This document shows, one piece after another, positions 21,562-34,623 of a stretch of 64,000 nt of DNA. How positions within the stretch are numbered: position 1 is the first letter of the stretch; the number at the start of each line of letters is the position of its first letter. The translations under genes and the position numbers were made by a program. A model generated the notes under the pieces. It had not been told where the DNA came from. It made no database searches and worked only from the letters and a program-made list of their open reading frames with translations. Source of the stretch: Polyangiaceae bacterium (GTDB lineage Bacteria > Myxococcota_A > Polyangia > Polyangiales > Polyangiaceae). The stretch lies in contig JBDHVE010000030.1 in the NCBI GenBank assembly GCA_039809485.1, forward strand, positions 1,752 to 65,751. The letters run 5' to 3'.

Positions 21562-22404
21562 ATGAGCTCGTCCGAACCGACCGTCACTGCGCGCCTCGAG
21601 GAGACCGTCGCCGCCGTCCGAAAGAAGGTGAGCGCCGCGCCGAAGATCGGCCTCGTCCTCGGCAGCGGCCTCGGCGCGTTCGCCGACACGCTCGAAGACC
21701 TCGTGAAGGTGCCGTACGCGGAGCTGCCCCACCTCCCCGCCTCGAAGGTCGTCGGTCACGCCGGCAACCTCTGCTTCGGAAATGTCTCTGGCGTGCCCGT
21801 CATCGCGATGCAGGGACGCGTGCACGTCTACGAGGGGCATCCGATCTGGCAGGTCGTCCACGGCGTGCGCGTGATGGCGCGCCTCGGCGTCTCCGCCGTG
21901 CTCGTCACGAACGCGGCCGGTGGTCTCGAGGACGGATGGGCGCCGGGCGACCTGATGCTCGTCACCGATCACTTGAACCTCATGTACACGCACCCGCTGA
22001 TCGGCCCGAACGAGGACGGCCTCGGCACGCGCTTCCCCGACATGACCCACGCCTACGATCCCGAGCTCCGGCGCATGGCGCTCGAGGTCTCGCGCGAGGA
22101 GAGCATCCCGCTCCGCGAGGGCGTGTACGCGGCGCTGATGGGACCTTCGTATGAGACGCCGGCGGAGATCCGGATGTTCAAGACCCTCGGCGCGCAGGCG
22201 GTCGGGATGAGCACCGTCCCGGAGGTCATCGCGCTCCGCCACATGCGCACGCGCGTCGCGGCGCTCTCGTGCATCACGAACCTCGCGGCCGGCATCTCGA
22301 AGCACCCGCTCGACCACAAGGAGGTCGAGGAGACGGCCCGCGCACGGCGCGCCGATCTCGAGCGCCTCCTCCGCGGCTGGATCGTGAAGGTAGGTCGCTC
22401 GTGA
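21562..22404 (+). CDS. punA: Purine nucleoside phosphorylase (trimeric, PunA/XapA type)
   Basis: LVLGSGLG, GHAG, QGRVHVYEG, VTNAAGG, GPSYETPAE, AVGMSTVPE, ITNLAAG. Confidence 0.95.
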   Translation: MSSSEPTVTARLEETVAAVRKKVSAAPKIGLVLGSGLGAFADTLEDLVKVPYAELPHLPASKVVGHAGNLCFGNVSGVPVIAMQGRVHVYEGHPIWQVVHGVRVMARLGVSAVLVTNAAGGLEDGWAPGDLMLVTDHLNLMYTHPLIGPNEDGLGTRFPDMTHAYDPELRRMALEVSREESIPLREGVYAALMGPSYETPAEIRMFKTLGAQAVGMSTVPEVIALRHMRTRVAALSCITNLAAGISKHPLDHKEVEETARARRADLERLLRGWIVKVGRS

Positions 22405-22910
22405 GCGCGACGAAGAAGCGGGTCCGCGTCGCCGCCGGCGTGAAGCAGGCGAAGCCGAAGGCGAGCAGCCGTCGCCCCGGCAAGGCGAAGCCGAAGGCGA
22501 ACGTCCCGTCCGCGCTCCTCGACGACCTCGTCGCGCGCGCGACCGAGATCCGCGAGAACGCCTACGCGCCGTACTCCAAGTACCAGGTCGGGGCCGCGAT
22601 CGCGACGAAGAGCGGCCGCGTCTACGCCGGGTGCAACGTCGAGAACTCCACCTTCGGCGCGTCGATCTGCGCGGAGCGGAACGCCGTCGTGCAGATGGTC
22701 GCCGCCGGGGACCGCGAGATCGTCGCCGTCGCGGTCGTGACCGGCGACGAGGGCGCCTCGCCGTGCGGGATCTGCCGCCAGGTGCTCGCCGAGTTCGCCG
22801 CCGACGACGTCCCGGTCGTGATGGTCGGCCTCGGGGCGGAAGGCGGCGAGGCCGGACGCGTCGTCGCGCTCGGGGATCTGCTCCCGCTCGCGTTCCGGCT
22901 CGAGGCCTGA
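22401..22910 (+). CDS. cdd: Cytidine deaminase
   Basis: AYAPYSKYQVGAA, GCNVENS, ICAERNA, SPCGICRQ; GTG overlaps the upstream stop. Confidence 0.95.
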   Translation: MSATKKRVRVAAGVKQAKPKASSRRPGKAKPKANVPSALLDDLVARATEIRENAYAPYSKYQVGAAIATKSGRVYAGCNVENSTFGASICAERNAVVQMVAAGDREIVAVAVVTGDEGASPCGICRQVLAEFAADDVPVVMVGLGAEGGEAGRVVALGDLLPLAFRLEA

Positions 22911-23498
22911 TCAGTTGCAGCGACGCTGCTGCCGGTACTCCTGGAGCGAGAACGAGCACTCCTGCTCGTCGGCGTAGTTGACCCACTTCTCGCAGACACG
23001 CGAGGTCGAGTCGCCGCGCTGGTTCATCTGCTGGCAGCAGCGCGCGAGCTCCGAGCACGAGCCGCCGCTCTCGCCGTCGAAGAAGCCGCCGATCCCGACC
23101 CCGCCGCCCTGACAGACGACGAGCGCCGGCTGACAGACGGACGGGTCGTTCGCGAGCGCGACCCCGATGCACGCGAGGCGGTCGTAGAAGTCGCCGAGCT
23201 GGCCGCAGCACGAGCTGAGCTGCGCGCAGGACTGCCCGTTCGGCGGGGCCGCGTCGACGCGCGCATCGGTGCCCGCGTCGGTCGTCGTCGGCGCAGGCGG
23301 CGTGCTCGCGTCCTCTCTCTCACCGCGCTTCGTCGTGACGTCGCTCTCCTGCTTGCCCTCGTCGCGCGACGAATCGTCGTCGCCGTCGTCGGCGGTGCCG
23401 TTCCCGTTCGGGAGCGGAGGAGCTGCCGTACACGCGAACACGACGGACGCGAGGGCGGGTGCGGCGAGCAGACGAACGAAACGGAACGCGGAACGCAT
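22911..23498 (-). CDS. Cys-rich lipoprotein with two tandem CxxLxxCC repeats
   Basis: GGAGG RBS, VFAC lipobox, acidic linker, SCAQLSSCC and SCSELARCC modules. Confidence 0.7.
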   Translation of the reverse strand: MRSAFRFVRLLAAPALASVVFACTAAPPLPNGNGTADDGDDDSSRDEGKQESDVTTKRGEREDASTPPAPTTTDAGTDARVDAAPPNGQSCAQLSSCCGQLGDFYDRLACIGVALANDPSVCQPALVVCQGGGVGIGGFFDGESGGSCSELARCCQQMNQRGDSTSRVCEKWVNYADEQECSFSLQEYRQQRRCN

Positions 23499-23651
23499 CG
23501 GGAGACCTCCAGGGATGAAGGGCTCCGATACAGGGGCCGTGCCACTCGGCGGATCGCCGGCGCAGCAGGCTTTTCCAGGGGTGCGGGCGTGATGTGGCGT
23601 CGAGCACGCGGGGAGCACGATCCAACTACGTCGGTGCCGGCAGAAACGTGG

Positions 23652-23773
23652 GAACAGAGAAAACAGGAAACAGGGAACGGGCAACCGGCAACGGGCAATG
23701 CGCGCCCGGACGTGCGGCGTGCTGAAATATCGCCGGTTGCCGGTTCCCTGTTTCCTGTTTCCTGTTCTCTCTC
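23652..23773. repeat. Intergenic inverted-repeat element built from heptamer repeats
   Basis: Arm 23662-23689 AACAGGAAACAGGGAACGGGCAACCGGC pairs with 23732-23759 with one mismatch; 42-nt spacer. Confidence 0.9.
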
Positions 23774-23784
23774 TCCCGAGAGGG

Positions 23785-25221
23785 TCACGTACCGCGCAGC
23801 ACCAGCAGTCGCTCTTCGGTCATGTCGGCCATCGCCCACCGCACGCCTTCCCGCCCGAAGCCCGAGCCCTTCACGCCGCCGTACGGCATGTTGTCGACGC
23901 GGAAGCTCGGGACGTCGCCGACGACGACGCCGCCGACCTCGAGCTCGTCCCACGCACGCATCGCGTGTCCGAGGTCGGACGTGAAGAGGCCCGCCTGGAG
24001 CCCGTAGTCGCCCTCGTTCGCGATCCGGAGCGCCTCGTCGAGGTCGTCGAACGGCGCGAGCGTCACGACGGGACCGAACGCCTCCTCGCACGCGAGCTTC
24101 GCGTCGTGCGGCACGCCCTCGACGACGGTGGCGTCGAGCATCGAGCCCTTCCGCGAGCCGCCGACGAGGACGCGCGCGCCGCGCTCCTTCGCCTCCGCGA
24201 GCCAGCCCTCGAGGCGCTTCGCTGCGGGCTCGTCGATCATCGGGCCGAGGAACGTACCTTCGTCCTTCGGATCGCCGGCGGCGAGGCCGCAGACCCTGGT
24301 GACGAGCGCATCGCGGAACGCGTCGTAGAGCGACCGGTGGACGAGGACACGCTGCACCGAGATGCAGCTCTGCCCCGACTGGTAGAACGCGCCGAAGACG
24401 ACGCGGTCGACGACGGCGTCGAGGCACTTGCCCTGGTCGGCGTCGACGATGCACGCGGCGTTGCCGCCGAGCTCGAGCACGACGCGCTTCCGTCCGGCCC
24501 GCGCGCGCAGATCCCACCCGACCTTCGACGAGCCGGTGAACGACAGGAGCGCGATCCGCGGGTCCTCGATGAACGGCGCGACGTGCTCGATCCGCGAAGG
24601 CAGGATCGAGAACGCCCCTTCCGGCAGCTCGGTCTCGGCCAGCACTTCGCCGAGGACGAGCGACGAGAGCGGCGTCCGGTCCGACGGCTTCAGCACGAAC
24701 GGGCAGCCTGCCGCGATCGCGGGCGCGACCTTGTGCGCGACGAGGTTGAGCGGGAAGTTGAACGGCGTGATGAACGAGCAGACGCCGACCGGCACACGCT
24801 TCGTCATCCCGCGGGTGCCGCGCGCACGCGCGGAGATCTCGAGCTCGAGGACCTCGCCGGTCGGCCGGGTCACCTCGTCGGACGCGGCCTCGAACGTGTC
24901 GACGAGGCGGGTGACCTCGCCGCGCGCGTCGCGGATCGGCTTGCCTGCTTCGACCGCGAGGATCCTCGCGAGCTCCTCGCTGCGCTCGCGGAAGCGACGC
25001 GCGGCGTGCCGGAGCACGTCACGCCGCGCGTAGGGAGGGAGCTTCCGCATCGCTTCGCGTGCGCCGTGGGCGGCGGCGATCGCGCGCTCGATCTCGGCGG
25101 GGCCCGCGAGCGCGATCTCGGCGACGACCTCCCCCGAGTACTTGTCGGTGACGGGGAGACGGCCTTCGGTCGTCTCCGCGACCTGTCGATTGGCGAGCCA
25201 GAACGGGTGACGCTTGGTCAT
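23785..25221 (-). CDS. Aldehyde dehydrogenase (ALDH21-like)
   Basis: ITPFNFPLNL, LKPSDRTP, SFTGS, LELGGNA, SGQSCIS, EEAFGP, YGGVKGSGFGREG. Confidence 0.95.
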   Translation of the reverse strand: MTKRHPFWLANRQVAETTEGRLPVTDKYSGEVVAEIALAGPAEIERAIAAAHGAREAMRKLPPYARRDVLRHAARRFRERSEELARILAVEAGKPIRDARGEVTRLVDTFEAASDEVTRPTGEVLELEISARARGTRGMTKRVPVGVCSFITPFNFPLNLVAHKVAPAIAAGCPFVLKPSDRTPLSSLVLGEVLAETELPEGAFSILPSRIEHVAPFIEDPRIALLSFTGSSKVGWDLRARAGRKRVVLELGGNAACIVDADQGKCLDAVVDRVVFGAFYQSGQSCISVQRVLVHRSLYDAFRDALVTRVCGLAAGDPKDEGTFLGPMIDEPAAKRLEGWLAEAKERGARVLVGGSRKGSMLDATVVEGVPHDAKLACEEAFGPVVTLAPFDDLDEALRIANEGDYGLQAGLFTSDLGHAMRAWDELEVGGVVVGDVPSFRVDNMPYGGVKGSGFGREGVRWAMADMTEERLLVLRGT

Positions 25222-25236
25222 GGTTTCTCTCCGACG

Positions 25237-26910
25237 TCATGCGGCGAGGCAGGCGCGCCCGAGCGCGCGGAGCTCGTCTCCGAGGATGCGGTGGTTCGCT
25301 TCATAGTCGATCGGCACGTCGACGAGGTGGATGCCGGGCGTGCGGAGCGTCCGCGCGAGGAGCGGCCCGAGATCGCTCGCGCGTTCGAGCCGGTGCCCCT
25401 CGGCGCCGAACGCCTCGGCGAGGCGGACGAAGTCGGGGTTGCCGAACGTCATCGCGTGATCGGGGAGCGCCATCTCGACCTGCTTCCAGCGGATCATCCC
25501 GTAGCCGTCGTCGCGTACGACGAGGACGGTCAGGTCGAGGCCGAGCCGCTTCGCCGTCTCGAGCTCCTGCACGCTCATCATCAGCCCGCCGTCGCCGACG
25601 ACGGCGACGACCTTCCGCTCCGGGTGCACGAGCTTCGCGGCGATCGCGGACGGGAGCCCCGCGCCCATCGTCGCGAGCGCGTTGTCGAGGAGCAGCGTCC
25701 GCGGTGCACGCGCGCGGTAGCTCCGCGCGAACCACAGCTTGTACATCCCGTTGTCGAGGCACACGATGCCGTCGTCCGGCATCGCACGCCGGACCTCCGC
25801 GACGAGCCGCGGCGGATGGATCGGGAAGCGCGCGTCGTCCTCCTCGCGCGCGAGGTGCTCGAGGAGCCGCGCGCGGACGGCTTCGAACGGCGCGAGCCGC
25901 GACGGGACGGCCGGGCCCGGCAGCGCCGCCGCGAGACGCGTCACGGCGTCGGCGAGATCGCCGACGAGCTCGAGGTCGGGCGCGTAGACCGCGTCGACTC
26001 CGGGTGAGGTCGCGCCGACGTGGACGAGGACCGGCCCTCCCGGCCGAGGAAGGAACGGCGGCTTCTCGGTCGTGTCGTGACCGACGACGAGGACGACGTC
26101 GGCGCGCGCGATCGCGGCGTGCACCGCGTCGCCGGAGGATGTCGCCGTCGTCCCGAGCCAGAGCGGATCGGCTTCGTCGAGGACGCCCTTGCCCATCTGC
26201 GTCGTCACGAACGGGATCCCCGTCCGCTCGACGAGCGAGCGGAGCGCACGCGGGACGCGCTCACCTCGGCTCGCGCCTTCCCCGACGACGAGGAGCGGCC
26301 GCTCCGCGGCGGCGAGGAGGTCGCGCGCCTTCCAGAGCGCGCGCTCGTCGACGATCGGACGCGACGCACCGTGCGCGCGCGACGAGGCGTGGACGCTCGC
26401 GCGCTCGCGCGCGACGTCGTCGGGGAGCTCGAGCAGCACGGCCCCGGGGCGCTCGTCCTCCGCACGGCGGAACGCGTCGTGGACGCGCGCGGTCACCTCG
26501 GCCGCGGAGGCGAGCGTCCGCGCGAGCTTCGTCACGGGGCGGAGCGCGCCGACGACGTCGACGGTCTGGAACCGCCCCTGCGCGCCGCCGCGGAGCGGCT
26601 TCTGCCCGGTCACGAACAGCGCCGGGAAGCCGCCGAGCTGCGCGTACGCCGCGGCGGTGACGAGGTTCGTCGCGCCGGGCCCGAGCGTCGCGAGCGCGAC
26701 GCCGGCGCGGCCGGTGAGGCGTCCCACCGTCGCGGCCATGATCCCCGCCGCCTGCTCGCTCCGCGTCACCACGAGCGGGAGCCCTGCCGCGCGCATCGCC
26801 TCGACGAGGTCGAGCGTCTCCTCGCCGGGCACACCGAACACTCGCGTCACGCCTTCGGCCCGCAGCGCTGCGACGAGCAGCTCGGCCGAGGTCGCCTCGA
26901 TTCGTTCCAT
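25237..26910 (-). CDS. ThDP-dependent enzyme, acetolactate synthase-like
   Basis: FGVPGEE, TRSEQAAG, TLGPGATN, ITGQ-like VTGQ, ATMGAGLP, VVGDGGLMMS, FGNPDF. Confidence 0.93.
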   Translation of the reverse strand: MERIEATSAELLVAALRAEGVTRVFGVPGEETLDLVEAMRAAGLPLVVTRSEQAAGIMAATVGRLTGRAGVALATLGPGATNLVTAAAYAQLGGFPALFVTGQKPLRGGAQGRFQTVDVVGALRPVTKLARTLASAAEVTARVHDAFRRAEDERPGAVLLELPDDVARERASVHASSRAHGASRPIVDERALWKARDLLAAAERPLLVVGEGASRGERVPRALRSLVERTGIPFVTTQMGKGVLDEADPLWLGTTATSSGDAVHAAIARADVVLVVGHDTTEKPPFLPRPGGPVLVHVGATSPGVDAVYAPDLELVGDLADAVTRLAAALPGPAVPSRLAPFEAVRARLLEHLAREEDDARFPIHPPRLVAEVRRAMPDDGIVCLDNGMYKLWFARSYRARAPRTLLLDNALATMGAGLPSAIAAKLVHPERKVVAVVGDGGLMMSVQELETAKRLGLDLTVLVVRDDGYGMIRWKQVEMALPDHAMTFGNPDFVRLAEAFGAEGHRLERASDLGPLLARTLRTPGIHLVDVPIDYEANHRILGDELRALGRACLAA

Positions 26911-26967
26911 GCCGAGAAGATGGGAGCGGACCGCGTGGCGGCCCAGACGTTTGTTCGGATGCGAGCG

Positions 26968-26982
26968 ATAAGCATTGCTTAT
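26968..26982. promoter_or_regulatory. LysR-type binding site (T-N11-A palindrome)
   Basis: ATAAGC-ATT-GCTTAT, an AT-rich perfect dyad 9 nt upstream of the LysR ATG in the divergent intergenic region. Confidence 0.75.
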
Positions 26983-26991
26983 GATCGACGC

Positions 26992-27888
26992 ATGGAGCTC
27001 CGCCACCTCCGCTACTTCCTCGCCGTCGCGGACACGCTCCACGTCGGGCGCGCCGCGCGAAAGCTCCACATCTCCCAGCCCGCCGTCTCCCAGCAGCTCC
27101 GCGAGCTCGAGGGCGAGCTCGGCGAGACGCTCTTCGAGCGGCACGCGCGTGGCGTGCGCCTCACGCCGGCAGGTGAGGTCTTCCGCGTGCACGCCTCGCG
27201 CGTGCTCGAGGACGTACGCGCGGGCGAACGCGCGCTCGCCGCCTTCGCGAACAAGCAGGTCGGCGAGCTCCGCGTCGCGTACCTGCCGAGCACGACCGCG
27301 AACCTCGTCATCCCCGCCGTCGCGGCGGTGATGAAGCGCTACCCCGGCGCACGCGTGATCGCGTACGAAGGCGTCTCACGCCGCGTGGAGCGCCTCGTCG
27401 CCGAGGGCCGCGCGGACGTCGGCCTCGGCCTGCTCCCGGTGCGGCGGACCGATCTCGTGACGGAGCCGGTGGTCGAAGGTCGCCTCTCCCTCGTGGTGCA
27501 CGCGAAGCACCCGCTCGCAGGCGAGGCCTCCGCTTCGCTCCGCGACGTCGCGAAGGAGCCCTTCGCGCTCCTCTCGCGATCGCTCCGCGCGCGCGCGCTC
27601 GCCGACGCGGCGCTCGCGCGTGCGGGCGTCGAGCCGACGATCGCGCTCGAGGCGGATGCGGTCGCGACCGTCCTCGCCGTCGTGCGCGCGGGGCTCGCCG
27701 TCGCCGTCCTCCCCGAGCCGCGCGTCCGGCGCGGCGACGACCTCGCCGTCGTCCCGCTCCGCCCCCGCGCGCCGCCGCACGTGACGGCGCTCCTCTACCG
27801 CGCGTCCGCCCTGCGCTCGCCGCTGACGGAGGCGTTCGGCGAAGAGGTGCGCGCCGTCGCCGGTCGCCGACTCGACGAGGTCCGCTGA
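26992..27888 (+). CDS. LysR-family transcriptional regulator
   Basis: MELRHLRYFLAVA...AARKLHISQPAVSQQLRELE..LG..LFER...VRLTPAG; divergent from the ThDP enzyme/ALDH pair. Confidence 0.96.
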   Translation: MELRHLRYFLAVADTLHVGRAARKLHISQPAVSQQLRELEGELGETLFERHARGVRLTPAGEVFRVHASRVLEDVRAGERALAAFANKQVGELRVAYLPSTTANLVIPAVAAVMKRYPGARVIAYEGVSRRVERLVAEGRADVGLGLLPVRRTDLVTEPVVEGRLSLVVHAKHPLAGEASASLRDVAKEPFALLSRSLRARALADAALARAGVEPTIALEADAVATVLAVVRAGLAVAVLPEPRVRRGDDLAVVPLRPRAPPHVTALLYRASALRSPLTEAFGEEVRAVAGRRLDEVR

Positions 27889-27988
27889 CAACGGCTTGGG
27901 GGGAAACGCCTACGGCCGAGGGGCCCGCCCGCCCCTCACAGCCCTCAGGGCGAGGGTGGAAGGCCGCGGAAAGGCCCCGATCGCGCGC

Positions 27989-28004
27989 TGGCCCGAGTCC
28001 TGCT
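27989..28004 (+). promoter_or_regulatory. Candidate sigma54 promoter for the HzsA-like operon
   Basis: TGGCCCG-AGTC-CTGCT, GG-N10-GC spacing, about 70 nt upstream of the ATG at 28073. Confidence 0.4.
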
Positions 28005-28072
28005 CTAATCCGCGAGCGGCCGAGTTCCAACGCGAGGTGGGAAGCGTCACTCAGGCCGACACCGGAGCCGTC

Positions 28073-30409
28073 ATGCGACATCTCTCTGGCCTCTTCACCA
28101 AGACGCGCGTCACCGCCCTCGTCCTCGTCCTCGGCGCCGCCTTCGGCCCCTCGGCCGTCGTCGCGTGCGGCAGCTCCGAGAAGGAGGAGACGAGCGTCAA
28201 CGTGTCGGCCATCGTCTTCGAGTCGCGCGCGCACACCGTGATCGCCGAGAACGGCGAGGTGTCCGTCAACGTGGCGGGCGGCAACGGGCAGGTCCTCGAC
28301 TACACGCGCTACGTCCCCGGCGCGAAGCTCCGCGTGCTCTCGCCGCCGCGTCCGGACGGCGCGGTCCGGAACCTGATCGAGGCGTTCCCGCAGGCCGACC
28401 TGAACGGCTTCGACGTCTCGTTCGACGCGAAGCAGGTCGTCTTCTCGATGAAACGCGACCCGAACGATCGCTACCACATCTACACGGTGCAGCTCGACAC
28501 GGGCGAGATCCACCAGAAGACGGGCGGCGATCAGAACGACATCACGCCGATCTACCTCCCCGGCGGCCGGATCGCCTTCGCGACGGACCAGATGTACACG
28601 CCGATGGGCACGCGCGCCGACGAGTACAACCACTCGCGTCAGGTCACGCAGCTCGCGACGATCAGCATCGACGGCGGTGACGCCGACCGCCGCCTCGCGT
28701 CGCAGAACCTCTCGCACTCCGTCTCGCTCTTCTCGCGCCACAACGGGAAGATCGGCTACTCGCGCTGGGAGCACCTCGGCGGCGTCAACGACGTGAAGCT
28801 GTTCGAGGCCGCGCCGGACGGCGCGCAGATGACGGCGATCGCGGGCCAGCACGGCAAGCCGTCGAACTCGCTCGTCAACGTGCGCGAGCTCGAGCCGAAC
28901 GTCTTCATCGGGATCGCGACGAACCGCTCGCGCACGATCCACGCGGGCGCGCTCGTGAAGATCGACGCGCGCAACCATGCCGACCCGATCTGCATGGACG
29001 CCAAGATCCTCGACAAGGCGGGGCACGCCTGCCTCGACGAGGAGAACGTCCAGTACGAGCTCCTCACGCCCGAGGTCCCGACCGGCGCGGGCCCCTCGCC
29101 CGTCGGCCGCTACCGGACGCCGAGCGCTCTCCCGGACGGCCGCCTCCTCGTCTCGTGGGCCGACGGCGCGGTGAACGACCTCGCCGAGCAGTCGCTCACG
29201 CCGCCGAACTTCGGCATCTACATGTTCGACCCGGCGACGAAGAAGAACCAGCTGATCTTCGACGACCGTGACATGTGGGATCTGAACGCGATGGCCGTCG
29301 CGCCGCGTCCCGAGCCGCCGGTGATCGGCGCGCTCACGGCGCGGGCGCCCGATCCCGGTACGCCGGTCCGGATCGGCTCCGTCGACATCACGCGCACGAG
29401 CCTCACCGATCGCGTGAGCGGCGGCATGTTCGGCGACGGCGTTCCGCTGAACGAGGCGCTCAAGGCGGCGGTGAAGGTCCGCGTCATCGAGGGCTTCTCG
29501 AGCGAGGCCGCGAAGGGCGTCACGATGTTCGGCCTCACGATGGACGAAGGCGCCGCGATCCTCGGCGAGGCCGACGTGAACCCGGACGGGAGCTGGCTCG
29601 CGGAGATCCCGCCGTACCTGCCGGTCCACCTCCAGCCGATCGACAAGTTCGGGATGTCGATCCGCAACCAGCGCCTCTGGATCCAGGGCATGCCCGGCGA
29701 GGACCGCCGCTGCATCGGCTGCCACGAGAGCCGCACGCAGTCGGTCGCGGCGCGCGCCGGAAACCCCACCGTCGCCGAGCAGCGTCAGGCGCAGCAGTTC
29801 CTCGCGCCGGTCTCCGACCGCGCGGAGATCTCGTGGAGCCTCGACCGCACGAAGTACCCCGACGCGAAGCCGAAGGCGGTCGTCCAGGACATCCTCAACG
29901 CGAAGTGCGCGTCGTGTCACTCGGGCGGCGCGAACGACCCCTTCGCCGGCAAGACGTACAGCGTCACGCAGACGACGCCGGGGACCGGCACGACGCAGCA
30001 GTACACGATCCCGTACCTCGACCTCAGCGAGAAGCCGATCACCGTCGTCTACGACCGCATGGTCGCGACCTATCCGTCCTCCTACGTCTCGCTCTTCTTC
30101 CCCGCCACGCTCGAGATGGGGATGGGGATGGGCGCGGCACCGGTCGGTGAGGTCCCGCCGAAGTGGGCGATCGTGAACGACGCGCGCAACTCGGCGCTGA
30201 TCAAGAAGCTGAACGTGAAGGCGCCGGACGGCTCGTTCGCCTACGGCAACCCGGCGATGCACCCCGAGGACAAGGGCGTCACCCTCACCGACGAAGAGCG
30301 CCTGCAGCTCGTCCGCGCGATCGACATCGGAGGCCAGTTCTACACGCGACAGAACACCGGCTTCGTCCCCTTCAACGACACCCGCTACGCCGGGCAGGCG
30401 TACCCCTGA
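28073..30409 (+). CDS. Hydrazine synthase alpha-like lipoprotein (PD40/TolB propeller + HZS-alpha middle domain + C-terminal c-heme domain)
   Basis: VVAC lipobox; DVSFDAKQVVFSMK, DITPIYLPGGRIAF propeller repeats; VNPDGSWLAEIP...LQPIDKFG...PGEDRRCIGCHE; CASCH. Confidence 0.82.
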   Translation: MRHLSGLFTKTRVTALVLVLGAAFGPSAVVACGSSEKEETSVNVSAIVFESRAHTVIAENGEVSVNVAGGNGQVLDYTRYVPGAKLRVLSPPRPDGAVRNLIEAFPQADLNGFDVSFDAKQVVFSMKRDPNDRYHIYTVQLDTGEIHQKTGGDQNDITPIYLPGGRIAFATDQMYTPMGTRADEYNHSRQVTQLATISIDGGDADRRLASQNLSHSVSLFSRHNGKIGYSRWEHLGGVNDVKLFEAAPDGAQMTAIAGQHGKPSNSLVNVRELEPNVFIGIATNRSRTIHAGALVKIDARNHADPICMDAKILDKAGHACLDEENVQYELLTPEVPTGAGPSPVGRYRTPSALPDGRLLVSWADGAVNDLAEQSLTPPNFGIYMFDPATKKNQLIFDDRDMWDLNAMAVAPRPEPPVIGALTARAPDPGTPVRIGSVDITRTSLTDRVSGGMFGDGVPLNEALKAAVKVRVIEGFSSEAAKGVTMFGLTMDEGAAILGEADVNPDGSWLAEIPPYLPVHLQPIDKFGMSIRNQRLWIQGMPGEDRRCIGCHESRTQSVAARAGNPTVAEQRQAQQFLAPVSDRAEISWSLDRTKYPDAKPKAVVQDILNAKCASCHSGGANDPFAGKTYSVTQTTPGTGTTQQYTIPYLDLSEKPITVVYDRMVATYPSSYVSLFFPATLEMGMGMGAAPVGEVPPKWAIVNDARNSALIKKLNVKAPDGSFAYGNPAMHPEDKGVTLTDEERLQLVRAIDIGGQFYTRQNTGFVPFNDTRYAGQAYP

Positions 30410-30425
30410 GGACGAGGAGAACCCC

Positions 30426-31358
30426 ATGATCTCCAAGACGACCAAGCTCGGCCTCACGGTCTCCACCTTCGCGTCCGTCGCGTTCGCGTGCCTGTCGCTC
30501 TTCACGCCGGCAGCCCACGGCGGCCCGGCGGAGGCGACCGGCGGCGCCGCGCGGATGTACCCGGGCATCGCCCCCGACCAGATCGAGAAGCTCTCCTCCG
30601 GCGACCGCATCAAGACGGTCACCGCGCAGCGCGGATCGATGACGGCGATCTGGGAAGCGCTCGAGGAGGGCGAGAAGGTCGAGTGCCTCGACTGCATCCC
30701 ATCCGTCGAGCCGCTCATGTACGACGCCGATCCGCGGACGCGCGAGATCGCCGCGTGGTGGCTCCGCCGCCGGATCTTCGGCGTGTTCGGCCCGGGCGAG
30801 GTCTACGAGCGCACGATCAAGCGGCTCTCGTCGGACGGGAACCCGAAGGTCCGCGCCTACGCGGCCGAAGCCCTCGGCGAGTTCCTGCTCGCGCCGGGCG
30901 TCGAAGCCGTCGCGCTCGCGGTCGAGAAGGATCCGGAGCCCACCGTCCGCGCGGCGGCGGCGAGCGCGCTCGGTCGTCTCAACGACGACGGTCGCGACGC
31001 GATCACGAAGGCGCTCGGGGACAGCGACCCGCGCGTGAAGCTCGCCGGCCTCTCGTCGGCGACGCGGGTGAACTCGTTCTCCGACGTCTCGGCGGTCGCG
31101 AAGCTCCTCGGCGACGGGGACGCGAAGGTGCGCCGGCGCGCGGCCGAAGCGCTCGGCTCGATGAACGCGAAGGACTCGACGGCAGGCCTGATGGCCCTCG
31201 CGAAGAACGACCCGGACGCGAACGTCCGCAACTCGGCCGTCCACACCCTCGGCATGCTCCGCGACCCCAACGCGCGGCCCGTGCTCGAGGACGTCGCGAA
31301 GACCGACGCCGACTCGCTCGTCCGCGATCAGGCCGCGATCGCGCTCCGCCGACTCTGA
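30426..31358 (+). CDS. Exported HEAT-repeat protein with CxxC
   Basis: Signal peptide; ECLDC; repeated D.dp.VR..AA.ALG units. Confidence 0.88.
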   Translation: MISKTTKLGLTVSTFASVAFACLSLFTPAAHGGPAEATGGAARMYPGIAPDQIEKLSSGDRIKTVTAQRGSMTAIWEALEEGEKVECLDCIPSVEPLMYDADPRTREIAAWWLRRRIFGVFGPGEVYERTIKRLSSDGNPKVRAYAAEALGEFLLAPGVEAVALAVEKDPEPTVRAAAASALGRLNDDGRDAITKALGDSDPRVKLAGLSSATRVNSFSDVSAVAKLLGDGDAKVRRRAAEALGSMNAKDSTAGLMALAKNDPDANVRNSAVHTLGMLRDPNARPVLEDVAKTDADSLVRDQAAIALRRL

Positions 31359-31362
31359 AAGA

Positions 31363-31447
31363 AGGCTCCAGGCTACAGGCTTCAGCAGCGAGAGATTTCG
31401 CCGACCGCAACCGCTCTCTCGTTCCTGAAGCCTGTAGCCTGGAGCCT
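31363..31447. repeat. Intergenic inverted-repeat element built from heptamer repeats
   Basis: Perfect 23-bp IR: AGGCTCCAGGCTACAGGCTTCAG (31363-31385) and its complement (31425-31447); inner CGAGAGA/TCTCTCG pair. Confidence 0.92.
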
Positions 31448-31464
31448 GTGGCGTTTCCGCTACA

Positions 31465-34400
31465 ATGCCGACCGTGCGCTTTCCTTCCGCCATCACCGCG
31501 GCCGTTGCAGCCGGCGCCGTCTTCGTCGCCCTCTCGCCGCTCTCGTGCTCCGAGAAGGAGCCGCAGTCGTCGACGTACTTCGATCGTACGATCAGCCCGA
31601 TCCTGACGACGGGGTGCTCGCGGACGAACACGGGCGCGAGCTGTCACGTCGCGGACGCGAAGGGCAACGCGCTCGGCAACCTCGACACCGCGAGCTACGC
31701 CGGGATCGCGAAGCGGCGCGATCTCCTCGTCGACTACGGCCCGTACGGGCAGCCGGCCCTCCTCCTCAAGAACGTCGATCCGCTCCAGGTCGCGGTCACG
31801 ACGTACGACGGCAAGAAGGTCACCGTCACGACCGACATCAAGCACGCGGGCGGCTCCGTCCTCGACGCGACCGGCACCGCGTACACGACGCTCCGGCGCT
31901 GGCTCCAGAACGGCGCGACCGAGAACAACACCGGCGCCACCGCGAAGCAGCTCGAGAAGCAGGCCTGCAGCACGTTCCTCCCGTCGCGCGAGTTCGATCT
32001 CACGAAGGACCCGCCGCGCGCGGACTTCGCGCTGTTCCGCGACAAGGTGAATCCGCTCCTCACGAGGCCTTCGGAGTCCGGCACCGACAAGAGCTGCGCG
32101 GCCTCGAACTGCCACGGCACGGTGGCGAACTCGCTCTACCTCTCGTGCGGCGACACCCCCGAGCAGCTCCGCTTCAACTACTACGCGTCCCAGGAGTACC
32201 TCGCCGCGACGCCGGAGCAGAGCGAGCTGCTCCGCCGTCCGCTCTCGCCGTCGGCGGGAGGCGCGTACCACGAGGGCGGCGTCGTCTTCGACAGTCCGAG
32301 CGACGACGTCTACCAGGCGCTGAACGAGTGGGCGAAGGCGCACGGCCCGGCGATCGTCCCGGAGAGGGACGCCGGCTTCGACTTCTTCTCGCAGAAGGTG
32401 CAGCCGATCCTCGTCAAGAAGGGCTGCATGATGATGCAGTGCCACTCGGCGACGCTGTTCCACGACTACCGGCTCCGCGGCGGATCGGGCGGGAGCTTCT
32501 CGCTCAGCGCGACGCGGAAGAACTACGAGCTGTCGCTCACGCAGCTGGCGGTCGAGAGCGACGATCCGAGCGCGAGCCGGATCGTGAAGAAGAACCTCTA
32601 CCGCCCGGAGGTGTGCGGCGTCGCCGGGTGTGACAAGCCCTCGGGCATCACGCACCGCGGCGGTCCGCTCTTCGAGGACTTCGGCAACCAGACCGCGAGC
32701 CCGAAGGCGTGCGCGGAGGGGAAGTACGACTACGACAACGGCGATCTCGACAAGATCCCCGCGTACTGCGTCGTCGCCGAATGGCTCCGGCGCGAGCGCG
32801 AGACCCACAAGCTCGCGCCGCTCAGCGCCGTCGTGTACGTGAAGCGCCCGCTCGGCAGCTACAAGCGCGTGCAGGACTTCGACGTCTATTCGCCGGGCGC
32901 CGATCTGCGTCGCGCGGCGGTGACCGTCGCTGCCGACGGCCGGATCACGGCGGGGAACGACACCTCGCTCGCGCAGGGCTGCGGCCTCAGCCCTGCGACC
33001 GCGGACATCCAGCGCCCGCAGGTGTCGTGGGACGGCGCGAAGATCGCGTTCGCCGCGCGCTCGTCGGCGAGCGAGCCGCTCGCCGTCTACGAGATGAACG
33101 CGGACGGCTCCGCGTGCGCGAAGCACCCGGTGATCAACGCGACGCCGCCGACGCAGAACGGCCTCCTCGTCCACAACTTCGACCCGACCTATGCGCCGCC
33201 GGAGAACGGCGTGACGCGCATCGTCTGGGCCTCGACGCGCGGAAACCTTCCGATCGTCCAGACCGACTACCAGGGGCCGCAGCGGCAGCCCGCCGATCCT
33301 TCGAAGCCGAACCCGAACCTCTACGTGCTCGAGGCGGGCGACAAGATCCGGCAGCTCACGTTCCTCCTCAACATGGAGCGACGTCCGAGCTTCATGAACG
33401 ACGGCCGGTTGATCTTTCCGGCCGAGAAGCGCGCGCCGCAGTTCCACCAGGTCGCGCTCCGCCGCATCAACATCGACTCGGGTGACTATCACCCGCTCTA
33501 CGCGCAGCGCAGCTCGATCGGCTACTCGGAGGCCTCCGAGGTCGTCGAGCTCTCGGACAAGAACTTCGCGACCATCTTCCGCGAGCCGAGCACGCCCCAC
33601 GGCGGCGGCGTCCTCGCGATCTTCAATCGGTCGCTCGGCCTCGACTTCAGGAGCACGAATCCGGCGGACTACCTCGTCGACCCCGGCGTCCTCGATCCGG
33701 CGGCGCTCCAGTCCCCCGACCCGCAGTTCTTCCTCCGATCCCTGAAGTTCCCCGATCCGGCTGCGGACGCGCGGCCCGGCAAGCCGACGACGGGCGTCTA
33801 CACGTCGCCGTCGATGCTCCCGAACGATCGCCTGCTCGTCAGCTTCGGCCCCGCGGCGGACGCGGCGGCCTTCGACGGCAACTACGACGTCTGGGTCATG
33901 AGCTCGGTGACCGGCGCGAAGGAGAAGCTCCTCGGCGACGCGGGCTCCGCGGAGGTCGAGGCCGTCGGCGTGTACGGCAAGCTCGTCCGGCCGATCTTCA
34001 AGTCGTCGCTCGACGAGCCGAACGGCCACACCCGCATCACGGACGGCGTCGCGGAAGCGCAGCTCCACGTCGTCGACTTCGGGATCCTCGCGACGCTCCT
34101 CTTCCAGAACACGCCGACGGGTCGGGTCATCGATCCCGACCTCACGTCGGTGGAGCTCTACGAGGACATGCCTCCCCCGCCCGAGATGGACTCGTTCGAG
34201 AAGGGCGGCGCCAACATCGCGACCGACGCGTACGGCCGGGTCTACGTCCGGCGGCGCCTCCTCGGCACGGTGCCGTTCGCGAGCGACGGCTCGGCGAAGT
34301 TCACGGTTCCGGGTGGCGTGCCGCTCGTCATCCACGCGCCCGACACACCGCTCTCGCGCGAGAAGAAGCTTCCGCGCTGGCAGCGTGAGCAGTACGTGTT

Positions 34401-34623
34401 CGCGCCGGGCGAGTACGCGCACCAGTCGTTCAAACGCGAGCTGTTCGGTTCGCTCTGCGGGGCGTGCCACGGGTCGGTCACCGGCAAGCCGGTCGACGCC
34501 GCGCTGATCCCGGACTTCGTCACCCAGGCGTCGTCGACGCTCTCACGTTCGCAGCCGCCGCTCGGCCTCGCGATCCCGCCGGCCCAGCGCACGCAGGTCC
34601 TCGAAGGCGCGCCGAAGGAGTAG
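31465..34623 (+). CDS. Multiheme lipoprotein: three N-terminal c-heme modules + PD40/TolB propeller + HZS-alpha-like middle domain
   Basis: PLSC lipobox; CX8CH, CX4CH, CX4CH each followed by H.GG; PQVSWDGAKIAFAAR, HNFDPTYAP; VPFASDGSAKFTVP...FAPGE...LCGACH. Confidence 0.8.
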   Translation: MPTVRFPSAITAAVAAGAVFVALSPLSCSEKEPQSSTYFDRTISPILTTGCSRTNTGASCHVADAKGNALGNLDTASYAGIAKRRDLLVDYGPYGQPALLLKNVDPLQVAVTTYDGKKVTVTTDIKHAGGSVLDATGTAYTTLRRWLQNGATENNTGATAKQLEKQACSTFLPSREFDLTKDPPRADFALFRDKVNPLLTRPSESGTDKSCAASNCHGTVANSLYLSCGDTPEQLRFNYYASQEYLAATPEQSELLRRPLSPSAGGAYHEGGVVFDSPSDDVYQALNEWAKAHGPAIVPERDAGFDFFSQKVQPILVKKGCMMMQCHSATLFHDYRLRGGSGGSFSLSATRKNYELSLTQLAVESDDPSASRIVKKNLYRPEVCGVAGCDKPSGITHRGGPLFEDFGNQTASPKACAEGKYDYDNGDLDKIPAYCVVAEWLRRERETHKLAPLSAVVYVKRPLGSYKRVQDFDVYSPGADLRRAAVTVAADGRITAGNDTSLAQGCGLSPATADIQRPQVSWDGAKIAFAARSSASEPLAVYEMNADGSACAKHPVINATPPTQNGLLVHNFDPTYAPPENGVTRIVWASTRGNLPIVQTDYQGPQRQPADPSKPNPNLYVLEAGDKIRQLTFLLNMERRPSFMNDGRLIFPAEKRAPQFHQVALRRINIDSGDYHPLYAQRSSIGYSEASEVVELSDKNFATIFREPSTPHGGGVLAIFNRSLGLDFRSTNPADYLVDPGVLDPAALQSPDPQFFLRSLKFPDPAADARPGKPTTGVYTSPSMLPNDRLLVSFGPAADAAAFDGNYDVWVMSSVTGAKEKLLGDAGSAEVEAVGVYGKLVRPIFKSSLDEPNGHTRITDGVAEAQLHVVDFGILATLLFQNTPTGRVIDPDLTSVELYEDMPPPPEMDSFEKGGANIATDAYGRVYVRRRLLGTVPFASDGSAKFTVPGGVPLVIHAPDTPLSREKKLPRWQREQYVFAPGEYAHQSFKRELFGSLCGACHGSVTGKPVDAALIPDFVTQASSTLSRSQPPLGLAIPPAQRTQVLEGAPKE

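Follow-up and report, generated by a model that had tools for sequence, protein, structure and literature searches.

In cyanobacteria, the enzyme OgdA (also called KGD) and the dehydrogenase SsaD form a bypass that begins with decarboxylation of 2-oxoglutarate; described examples are Synechococcus PCC 7002 A2770/A2771, Synechocystis Sll1981, and Microcystis MaKGD (PMC5160925, PMC10418658). MaKGD was crippled by mutation of E50, M410, D435, D462, or Y465, and docked 2-oxoglutarate contacted Q254, V382, K386, A408, L467, and K471 (PMC10418658). The moss aldehyde dehydrogenase (ALDH) PpALDH21A1 (PDB 5MZ5) is an NADP+-dependent succinic semialdehyde dehydrogenase (SSADH) (PMC7823795; bioRxiv 10.64898/2026.01.13.699213). 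Its Arg121, Tyr296, and Arg457 bind the carboxylate of succinic semialdehyde, and NAD+-binding ALDH5 uses Glu187, three residues past its lysine (bioRxiv 10.64898/2026.01.13.699213). The present analysis concerns three genes at positions 23785 to 27888 of a 64,000-nucleotide (nt) stretch of Polyangiaceae bacterium DNA (contig JBDHVE010000030.1), the whole of which is called the window. They encode a thiamine diphosphate (ThDP) enzyme, an ALDH, and a LysR-type regulator. We consider it moderately probable, from comparison of sequences, that they specify a LysR-induced, coenzyme A (CoA)-free route that converts 2-oxoglutarate to succinate by way of succinic semialdehyde. The genes and the signal between the first two are as follows.

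23785–25221, minus strand: ALDH gene, candidate SSADH, probably NAD+-preferring; 478 amino acids (aa), intact.
25237–26910, minus strand: ThDP enzyme gene, family PRK08322, candidate 2-oxoglutarate decarboxylase; 557 aa, intact.
26992–27888, plus strand: LysR-type regulator gene, divergent, 81 nt from the enzyme gene; 298 aa, intact.
25227–25232, minus strand: ALDH ribosome-binding site GGAGAG, from sequence, within the 15-nt gap.

An earlier sequence-only reading had described an acetolactate synthase-like gene 15 nt upstream of an ALDH gene and divergent from lysR, with no small regulatory subunit nearby, and had read the usual RHEQ motif as RSEQ with the catalytic Glu kept. Each of these observations was confirmed. 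The enzyme stop codon and the ALDH start codon were exactly 15 nt apart, with GGAGAG 5 nt ahead of the ALDH ATG, and no small subunit was found near the enzyme gene or anywhere in the genome. The RSEQ residues are S51 and E52; they are not a sequencing error, because a contig from another study was identical over 24751–27535 and a contig from a third study matched 26620–26780. The true start of the enzyme is the ATG at 26910, near which homologue alignments begin. A 651-aa N-terminally extended open reading frame from the GTG at 27192 was rejected, because it runs into lysR and extends beyond the point at which the alignments with homologues begin.

The ThDP enzyme passed the NCBIfam model NF006187 (PRK08322) with 700 bits against a cut-off of 509, and fell under the cut-offs of the AlsS/BudB models (396 vs 510; 347 vs 551) and of the IlvB model (309 vs 538). 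Microcystis-type KGD sequences were pulled from metagenomes by means of a peptide read from published primers; eight of them were 550 aa long, and in these every one of the 15 residues that PMC10418658 names stood at its published number. With 872 bits against PRK08322, this type of KGD belongs to the same family as the window enzyme. The family splits into a DVGAHK clade, which holds the cyanobacterial enzymes, and a DNGMYK clade, which holds the window enzyme. The DNGMYK clade was separate with support 100/100 and has a long stem; it was sister to the OgdA clade (97/96), with AlsS next outside the two and IlvB far away. Grouping the window clade with AlsS was rejected at p 0.032. Grouping it with IlvB, one of the outcomes that the earlier reading had named as a refutation, was rejected at p 0.0005. 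We conclude that the window enzyme probably works like OgdA, although it lies outside the assayed clade.

Hosts of the DNGMYK clade include myxobacteria, Xanthomonadales, sphingomonads, planctomycetes, and Pseudomonas. Homologues of about 52% identity occur in Rhizobium plasmid records, and 2-oxoglutarate decarboxylase activity has been reported in Bradyrhizobium (Green 2000, as cited in PMC10418658). An alignment-based structure model of the enzyme (predicted local distance difference test, pLDDT, 91.5) had an AlsS-like fold, the closest solved fold giving a template modelling (TM) score of 0.93; a single-sequence fold was uninformative (pLDDT 40). Two further loci were seen. In Pseudomonas putida QH1 (L037:2931-5641) a member of the same clade is divergent from another LysR gene (31% identity) and lacks a neighbouring ALDH gene, and on a haloarchaeal plasmid (L276:1598-4581) an OgdA-clade gene overlaps a gene annotated as NAD-dependent SSADH.

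Ten of the 15 published MaKGD site residues were kept in the window enzyme. Among them are all five that are critical by mutagenesis (E52, M415, D440, D467, and Y470); the others are E30, E31, K391, A413, and K476. K391, A413, and K476 are also kept docked contacts, with K391 and K476 the counterparts of the two lysines docked to 2-oxoglutarate. All 209 clade members had E30, E31, K391, and K476, and the OgdA clade showed little or no variation at these positions. The E30/E31 acid pair of the PGEE motif, K391, A413, and K476 were common to both clades, and typical AlsS and IlvB lack them. E30 would be the equivalent of Asp28 of pyruvate decarboxylase.

The genes beside the two enzyme clades gave the strongest sign that both release the same aldehyde. 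At distinct loci, the neighbours of the window clade were 58 ALDH21-like, 5 HAGQVC-type, and 2 SsaD-like ALDHs, and those of the OgdA clade were 2 ALDH21-like, 7 HAGQVC-type, and 36 SsaD-like ALDHs, in samples biased by the manner of retrieval. The SsaD-like partners scored best against the NADP-SSADH model PRK09406. The partners are therefore interchangeable, and two of them are known SSADH types.

The ALDH itself scored 509 bits by phmmer against moss ALDH21 and 623–629 bits against three bacterial ALDH structures; the next score was 305. Moss ALDH21 was thus its closest characterised relative, other named ALDHs reaching at most 305 bits. It is not GabD, because it fell under the TIGR01780 SSADH cut-off. 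R105, Y280, and R441 correspond in the alignment to Arg121, Tyr296, and Arg457 of the moss enzyme; R105 and R441 were invariant in relatives covering those positions, and C286, E250, and N155 were invariant in relatives. The cofactor site differs: the window ALDH has D181 where moss has the Ser that follows KPx, and I211, adjoined by R210, where moss has Arg228. Asp181 has the same spacing from the lysine as Glu187 of ALDH5. Arg228 is reportedly an NADP+ residue of the moss enzyme, and falls at chain position 246, an offset of 18, the same as that of the three moss carboxylate residues. We predict that the window ALDH prefers NAD+ over NADP+. The earlier proposal of an ALDH21-like NADP+ SSADH therefore stands for the carboxylate pocket, which is kept, but not for the cofactor, for which D181 and the missing Arg228 point to NAD+. 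Across 62 relatives the D181/I211-type states split 27 to 35 without exception. This split was rejected as independent covariation, because it had a single origin on the tree, covering most of the myxobacterial copies and those of Dyella/Rhodanobacter.

In the proposed route, the ThDP enzyme would grip 2-oxoglutarate with K391 and K476 and decarboxylate it; one acid of the E30/E31 pair would protonate the enamine, and succinic semialdehyde would be released. The ALDH would hold the semialdehyde carboxylate with R105, Y280, and R441 and oxidize it by way of C286, probably with NAD+. Neither CoA nor lipoamide would be needed for these two steps. The route might operate beside the normal dehydrogenase, as an overflow for 2-oxoglutarate that plausibly comes from the breakdown of amino acids, or as a back-up.

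The content of the window genome (9.5 Mb, 71% GC, completeness rating 99.95%; nearest named relatives Polyangiaceae/Labilithrix; window DNA present in activated-sludge and bioreactor sequencing runs) agreed with the earlier view that the enzyme does not serve branched-chain amino acid synthesis. Family searches of this genome found no ilvC, ilvD, ilvN, canonical ilvB, or alsD; in 14 control genomes the same searches matched the ilv families in 13 or 14 and alsD in 3. Minicystis rosea and Corallococcus exercitus, which have the same three genes, likewise gave no ilvC, ilvD, small subunit, canonical ilvB, or alsD. The other two ThDP enzymes of this fold in the window genome were PRK05858-like and PRK08273. 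In related genomes with branched-chain amino acid synthesis, ilvB and ilvC form a cluster of their own. Together with the rejected IlvB grouping, these results make branched-chain synthesis by the window enzyme very unlikely. The genome does contain sucA (1043 bits, cut-off 770) and sucC (in two pieces across a contig break), so the route would be auxiliary and not the filler of a missing tricarboxylic acid (TCA) cycle step. The term bypass in the earlier reading was thus wrong in so far as it implied replacement of 2-oxoglutarate dehydrogenase. An SsaD-like SSADH gene was present on another contig (C25), next to a methylmalonyl-CoA mutase gene that is read in the opposite direction. The unit was patchy, being carried by 8 of 24 same-genus genomes searched, which fits an optional, regulated route.

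Two elements between lysR and the enzyme gene bear on its regulation.

26968–26982: palindromic T-N11-A box ATAAGC-ATT-GCTTAT, likely LysR recognition site, from its uniqueness and conservation.
26948–26955: second conserved motif CGTTTGTT, candidate activation site, from spacing in 12 aligned intergenic regions.

The regulator matched Pfam HTH_1 and LysR_substrate; its nearest model was CynR (240 bits, under the cut-off of 277). Orthologues with 54–69% identity were divergent from the same enzyme-ALDH pair in nine of the ten best loci. A survey of 150 sampled genomes, with at most 15 candidates scored in each, gave no LysR orthologue with this query and was too thin to inform. The perfect box seen in the earlier reading had a single occurrence in the 9.5-Mb genome, where 0.03 would be expected; the looser ATAA-N7-TTAT pattern was also unique, and related loci had a box with the consensus ATAG-N7-CTAT at the equivalent place. 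Its centre lay 65 bp upstream of the enzyme ATG, and the box was 9 bp from the lysR ATG. The CGTTTGTT motif lay between the box and the enzyme gene, and its spacing from the box varied little. The locus thus combines a T-N11-A dyad, some 65 bp ahead of the target gene as measured to the ATG, with a second site, as in LysR-controlled units. A scan for sigma-70 promoters gave no match.

LysR recognition sites are usually centred near −65. In Polyangiaceae-type loci the box ended 57–58 nt before the enzyme ATG and no ribosome-binding site was present; in Myxococcaceae loci it ended 75–77 nt before the ATG, with a GGAG site. The Polyangiaceae spacing, the lack of a ribosome-binding site, and the usual LysR geometry together imply that the enzyme-ALDH transcript is probably leaderless, with a predicted start at or beside 26910. 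In two loci without an adjacent lysR the box was retained beside the enzyme. In the closest relative (L277:4364-5796), a two-gene insertion separates lysR from the enzyme, and neither inserted gene (291 and 182 aa) matched Pfam; the full box stayed with the enzyme and a degenerate copy with lysR, one on each side of the insertion. These split copies support both activation and autoregulation. We infer that LysR on the box would repress its own gene and, with effector, would activate the enzyme-ALDH transcript. The SQPA form of the helix-turn-helix went with the ATAAG box and SQPT with the ATAG box, in a single lineage; this correspondence is a hint only.

Several results weigh against the proposed route. 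The earlier reading had likened the enzyme to OgdA; the family, PRK08322, is the same, but the enzyme lies in the sister clade with 38% identity to MaKGD and cyanobacterial OgdA. Three of the six docked contacts differ (Q254, V382, and L467 are replaced by S258, N387, and M472), and all six were identified by docking to a modelled protein instead of in a solved structure. Given the sister clade, this identity, and 10 of 15 residues kept, 2-oxoglutarate is a predicted and not a demonstrated substrate; a search of the literature found no assay of any DNGMYK-clade member. Eighteen window-clade members, mostly Pseudomonas, had no adjacent ALDH, and the sampled loci are related, not independent. 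None of the conclusions depends on G082, an unpublished genome. Because sucA, sucC, and a second SsaD-like gene are present, nothing forces the proposed role. The arginine pair of the ALDH indicates an anionic aldehyde, not succinic semialdehyde specifically. Phosphono- and sulfo-acetaldehyde dehydrogenases are related to this type of ALDH, and models of them were near the top of its family matches. Finally, of 198 columns with at least 95% conservation, the window enzyme differed from the consensus at 22, against a median of 1. Its two closest relatives departed at 19–20 of those columns, and T32, S51, F95, L159, D164, E211, S214, and T280 were common to all three. RSEQ, which the earlier reading had singled out, is therefore real but is one of about 20 changes marking a diverged sub-lineage. 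The divergence may represent retuning, relaxed constraint, or a changed substrate; it lowers our confidence for this copy, whose substrate has possibly shifted.

The alternative that best survives is the same two-step chemistry on another anionic 2-oxoacid, in the whole clade or in the RSEQ sub-lineage only. Examples are 2-oxoadipate, which would give glutarate by way of glutarate semialdehyde, and a hydroxylated 2-oxoglutarate. The long stem of the clade, its fixed pocket differences from OgdA (S258, N387, Y390, F114, and K283), the fixed changes common to the window protein and its two closest relatives, and an arginine pair that suits any anionic semialdehyde all agree with it. Of 172 conserved positions in the ALDH, however, just 3 changed, and no known pocket residue is among these; two window-clade loci have an SsaD-like partner and two OgdA-clade loci an ALDH21 partner; the neighbouring genes include no catabolic gene for another substrate; and T at 32 and S at 51 also occur singly in other ThDP enzymes. 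We regard this alternative as unlikely; if correct, the clade or sub-lineage would define a catabolic route not yet described, under LysR control, independent of CoA, and with an ALDH21 that is NAD+-linked.

It is improbable that the enzyme of the sub-lineage is weakened or drifting and that the unit is mainly a regulated ALDH for semialdehyde detoxification. Its terminal branch was 0.73 against 0.16 for the sister, its nonsynonymous divergence (dN) was about twice that of the ALDH (0.20 vs 0.10), and neither of the two closest relatives keeps lysR directly beside the enzyme gene. Synonymous divergence (dS) was 0.52 for the enzyme and 0.53 for the ALDH, and dN was below dS in all comparisons, so both genes remain under purifying selection. 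In addition, GC content at third codon positions was 93%, like that of the neighbours, three separate sequence clusters had an uninterrupted frame, no catalytic residue was lost, and the box was still present ahead of the enzyme gene. Least probable of all is a carboligase or true acetolactate synthase, as annotated: AlsS is the nearest group outside the clades and the closest fold, its grouping was rejected only modestly (p 0.032), and F114 matches IlvB and K283 resembles the IlvB arginine, residues that bind the acceptor 2-oxoacid, but AlsS and IlvB have AK or GA where this enzyme has E30/E31, the ALDH partner suits aldehyde release, no ilvC, ilvD, or alsD was found here or in the Minicystis and Corallococcus genomes with the same triple, and genomes that make branched-chain amino acids have their separate cluster.

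If the route from 2-oxoglutarate to succinate is correct, the common annotation "acetolactate synthase large subunit" is wrong in myxobacteria, Xanthomonadales, sphingomonads, planctomycetes, and Pseudomonas; such misannotation can falsely suggest branched-chain synthesis in genomes without the rest of the pathway. Heterotrophs that run a complete TCA cycle would then possess the cyanobacterial shortcut as an inducible side branch, and bacterial ALDH21 would gain a physiological partner, with a predicted NAD+ branch of its family.

One further element lies just past the ALDH stop codon.

23651–23777: long inverted repeat with 49-nt arms, from repeat analysis and RNA fold.

Its RNA fold had −84.8 kcal/mol (z −10), and it probably marks the 3′ end of the operon. 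The repeat is dispersed through the genome (185 BLAST pieces) and resembles repetitive extragenic palindromes; it is A/G-rich, with CAGGAAACAGG and GGCAACCGGCAAC units and an 11-mer found 131 times on both strands. Downstream of it, at 22911–23498 on the minus strand, is a probable lipoprotein gene with repeated CxxLxxCC motifs and no Pfam match, and at 21562–22910 are purine nucleoside phosphorylase and cytidine deaminase genes, assigned by eye from translations; a deaminase gene is also near the enzyme-ALDH pair in the relative L278. On the other side, at 27896–34623, a HEAT-repeat protein lies between two large proteins (837 and 1052 aa), each with a middle domain of the hydrazine-synthase-alpha (HZS_alpha) type, in which several CxxCH-like motifs occur; the group may form an extracytoplasmic haem complex. 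An HZS_alpha gene is also near lysR in L277.

Comparison with known systems places the locus as follows. The best PDB sequence match of the enzyme was 13BB, an "acetolactate synthase" (424 bits) with PGDEN and DNG motifs; 13BB has Met where the window clade has K391, and it was not among the fold matches of the enzyme model. The acetohydroxyacid synthases IlvB, IlvG, and IlvI share the three-domain ThDP fold, the database annotation, and F114; the window enzyme differs in its score (309 vs cut-off 538), the rejected grouping (p 0.0005), and a genome in which no ilvN, ilvC, or ilvD was found. AlsS/BudB with AlsR/BudR share the closest solved fold (TM 0.93), the lack of a small subunit, and the divergent LysR; the window enzyme has PGEE for PGAK, K476 for Gln, and an ALDH partner, and no alsD was found in its genome. 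Moss ALDH21 (509 bits) shares the Arg/Tyr/Arg carboxylate site and the catalytic Cys and Glu with the window ALDH, which is bacterial, lies in an operon with its presumed aldehyde source, and has Asp181 for Ser and Ile211 for Arg228, with NAD+ predicted. The cyanobacterial bypass shares PRK08322, a ThDP enzyme beside an ALDH, the mutagenesis-critical residues, both docked lysines, and PGEE; the window enzyme belongs to the sister clade (38% identity), with DNGMYK for DVGAHK, an ALDH21-type partner in place of SsaD, LysR control, and a host with sucA and sucC. The pathway logic is already known; the novelty lies in the DNGMYK clade, the predicted NAD-type ALDH21, the regulatory site, and the divergence of this copy.

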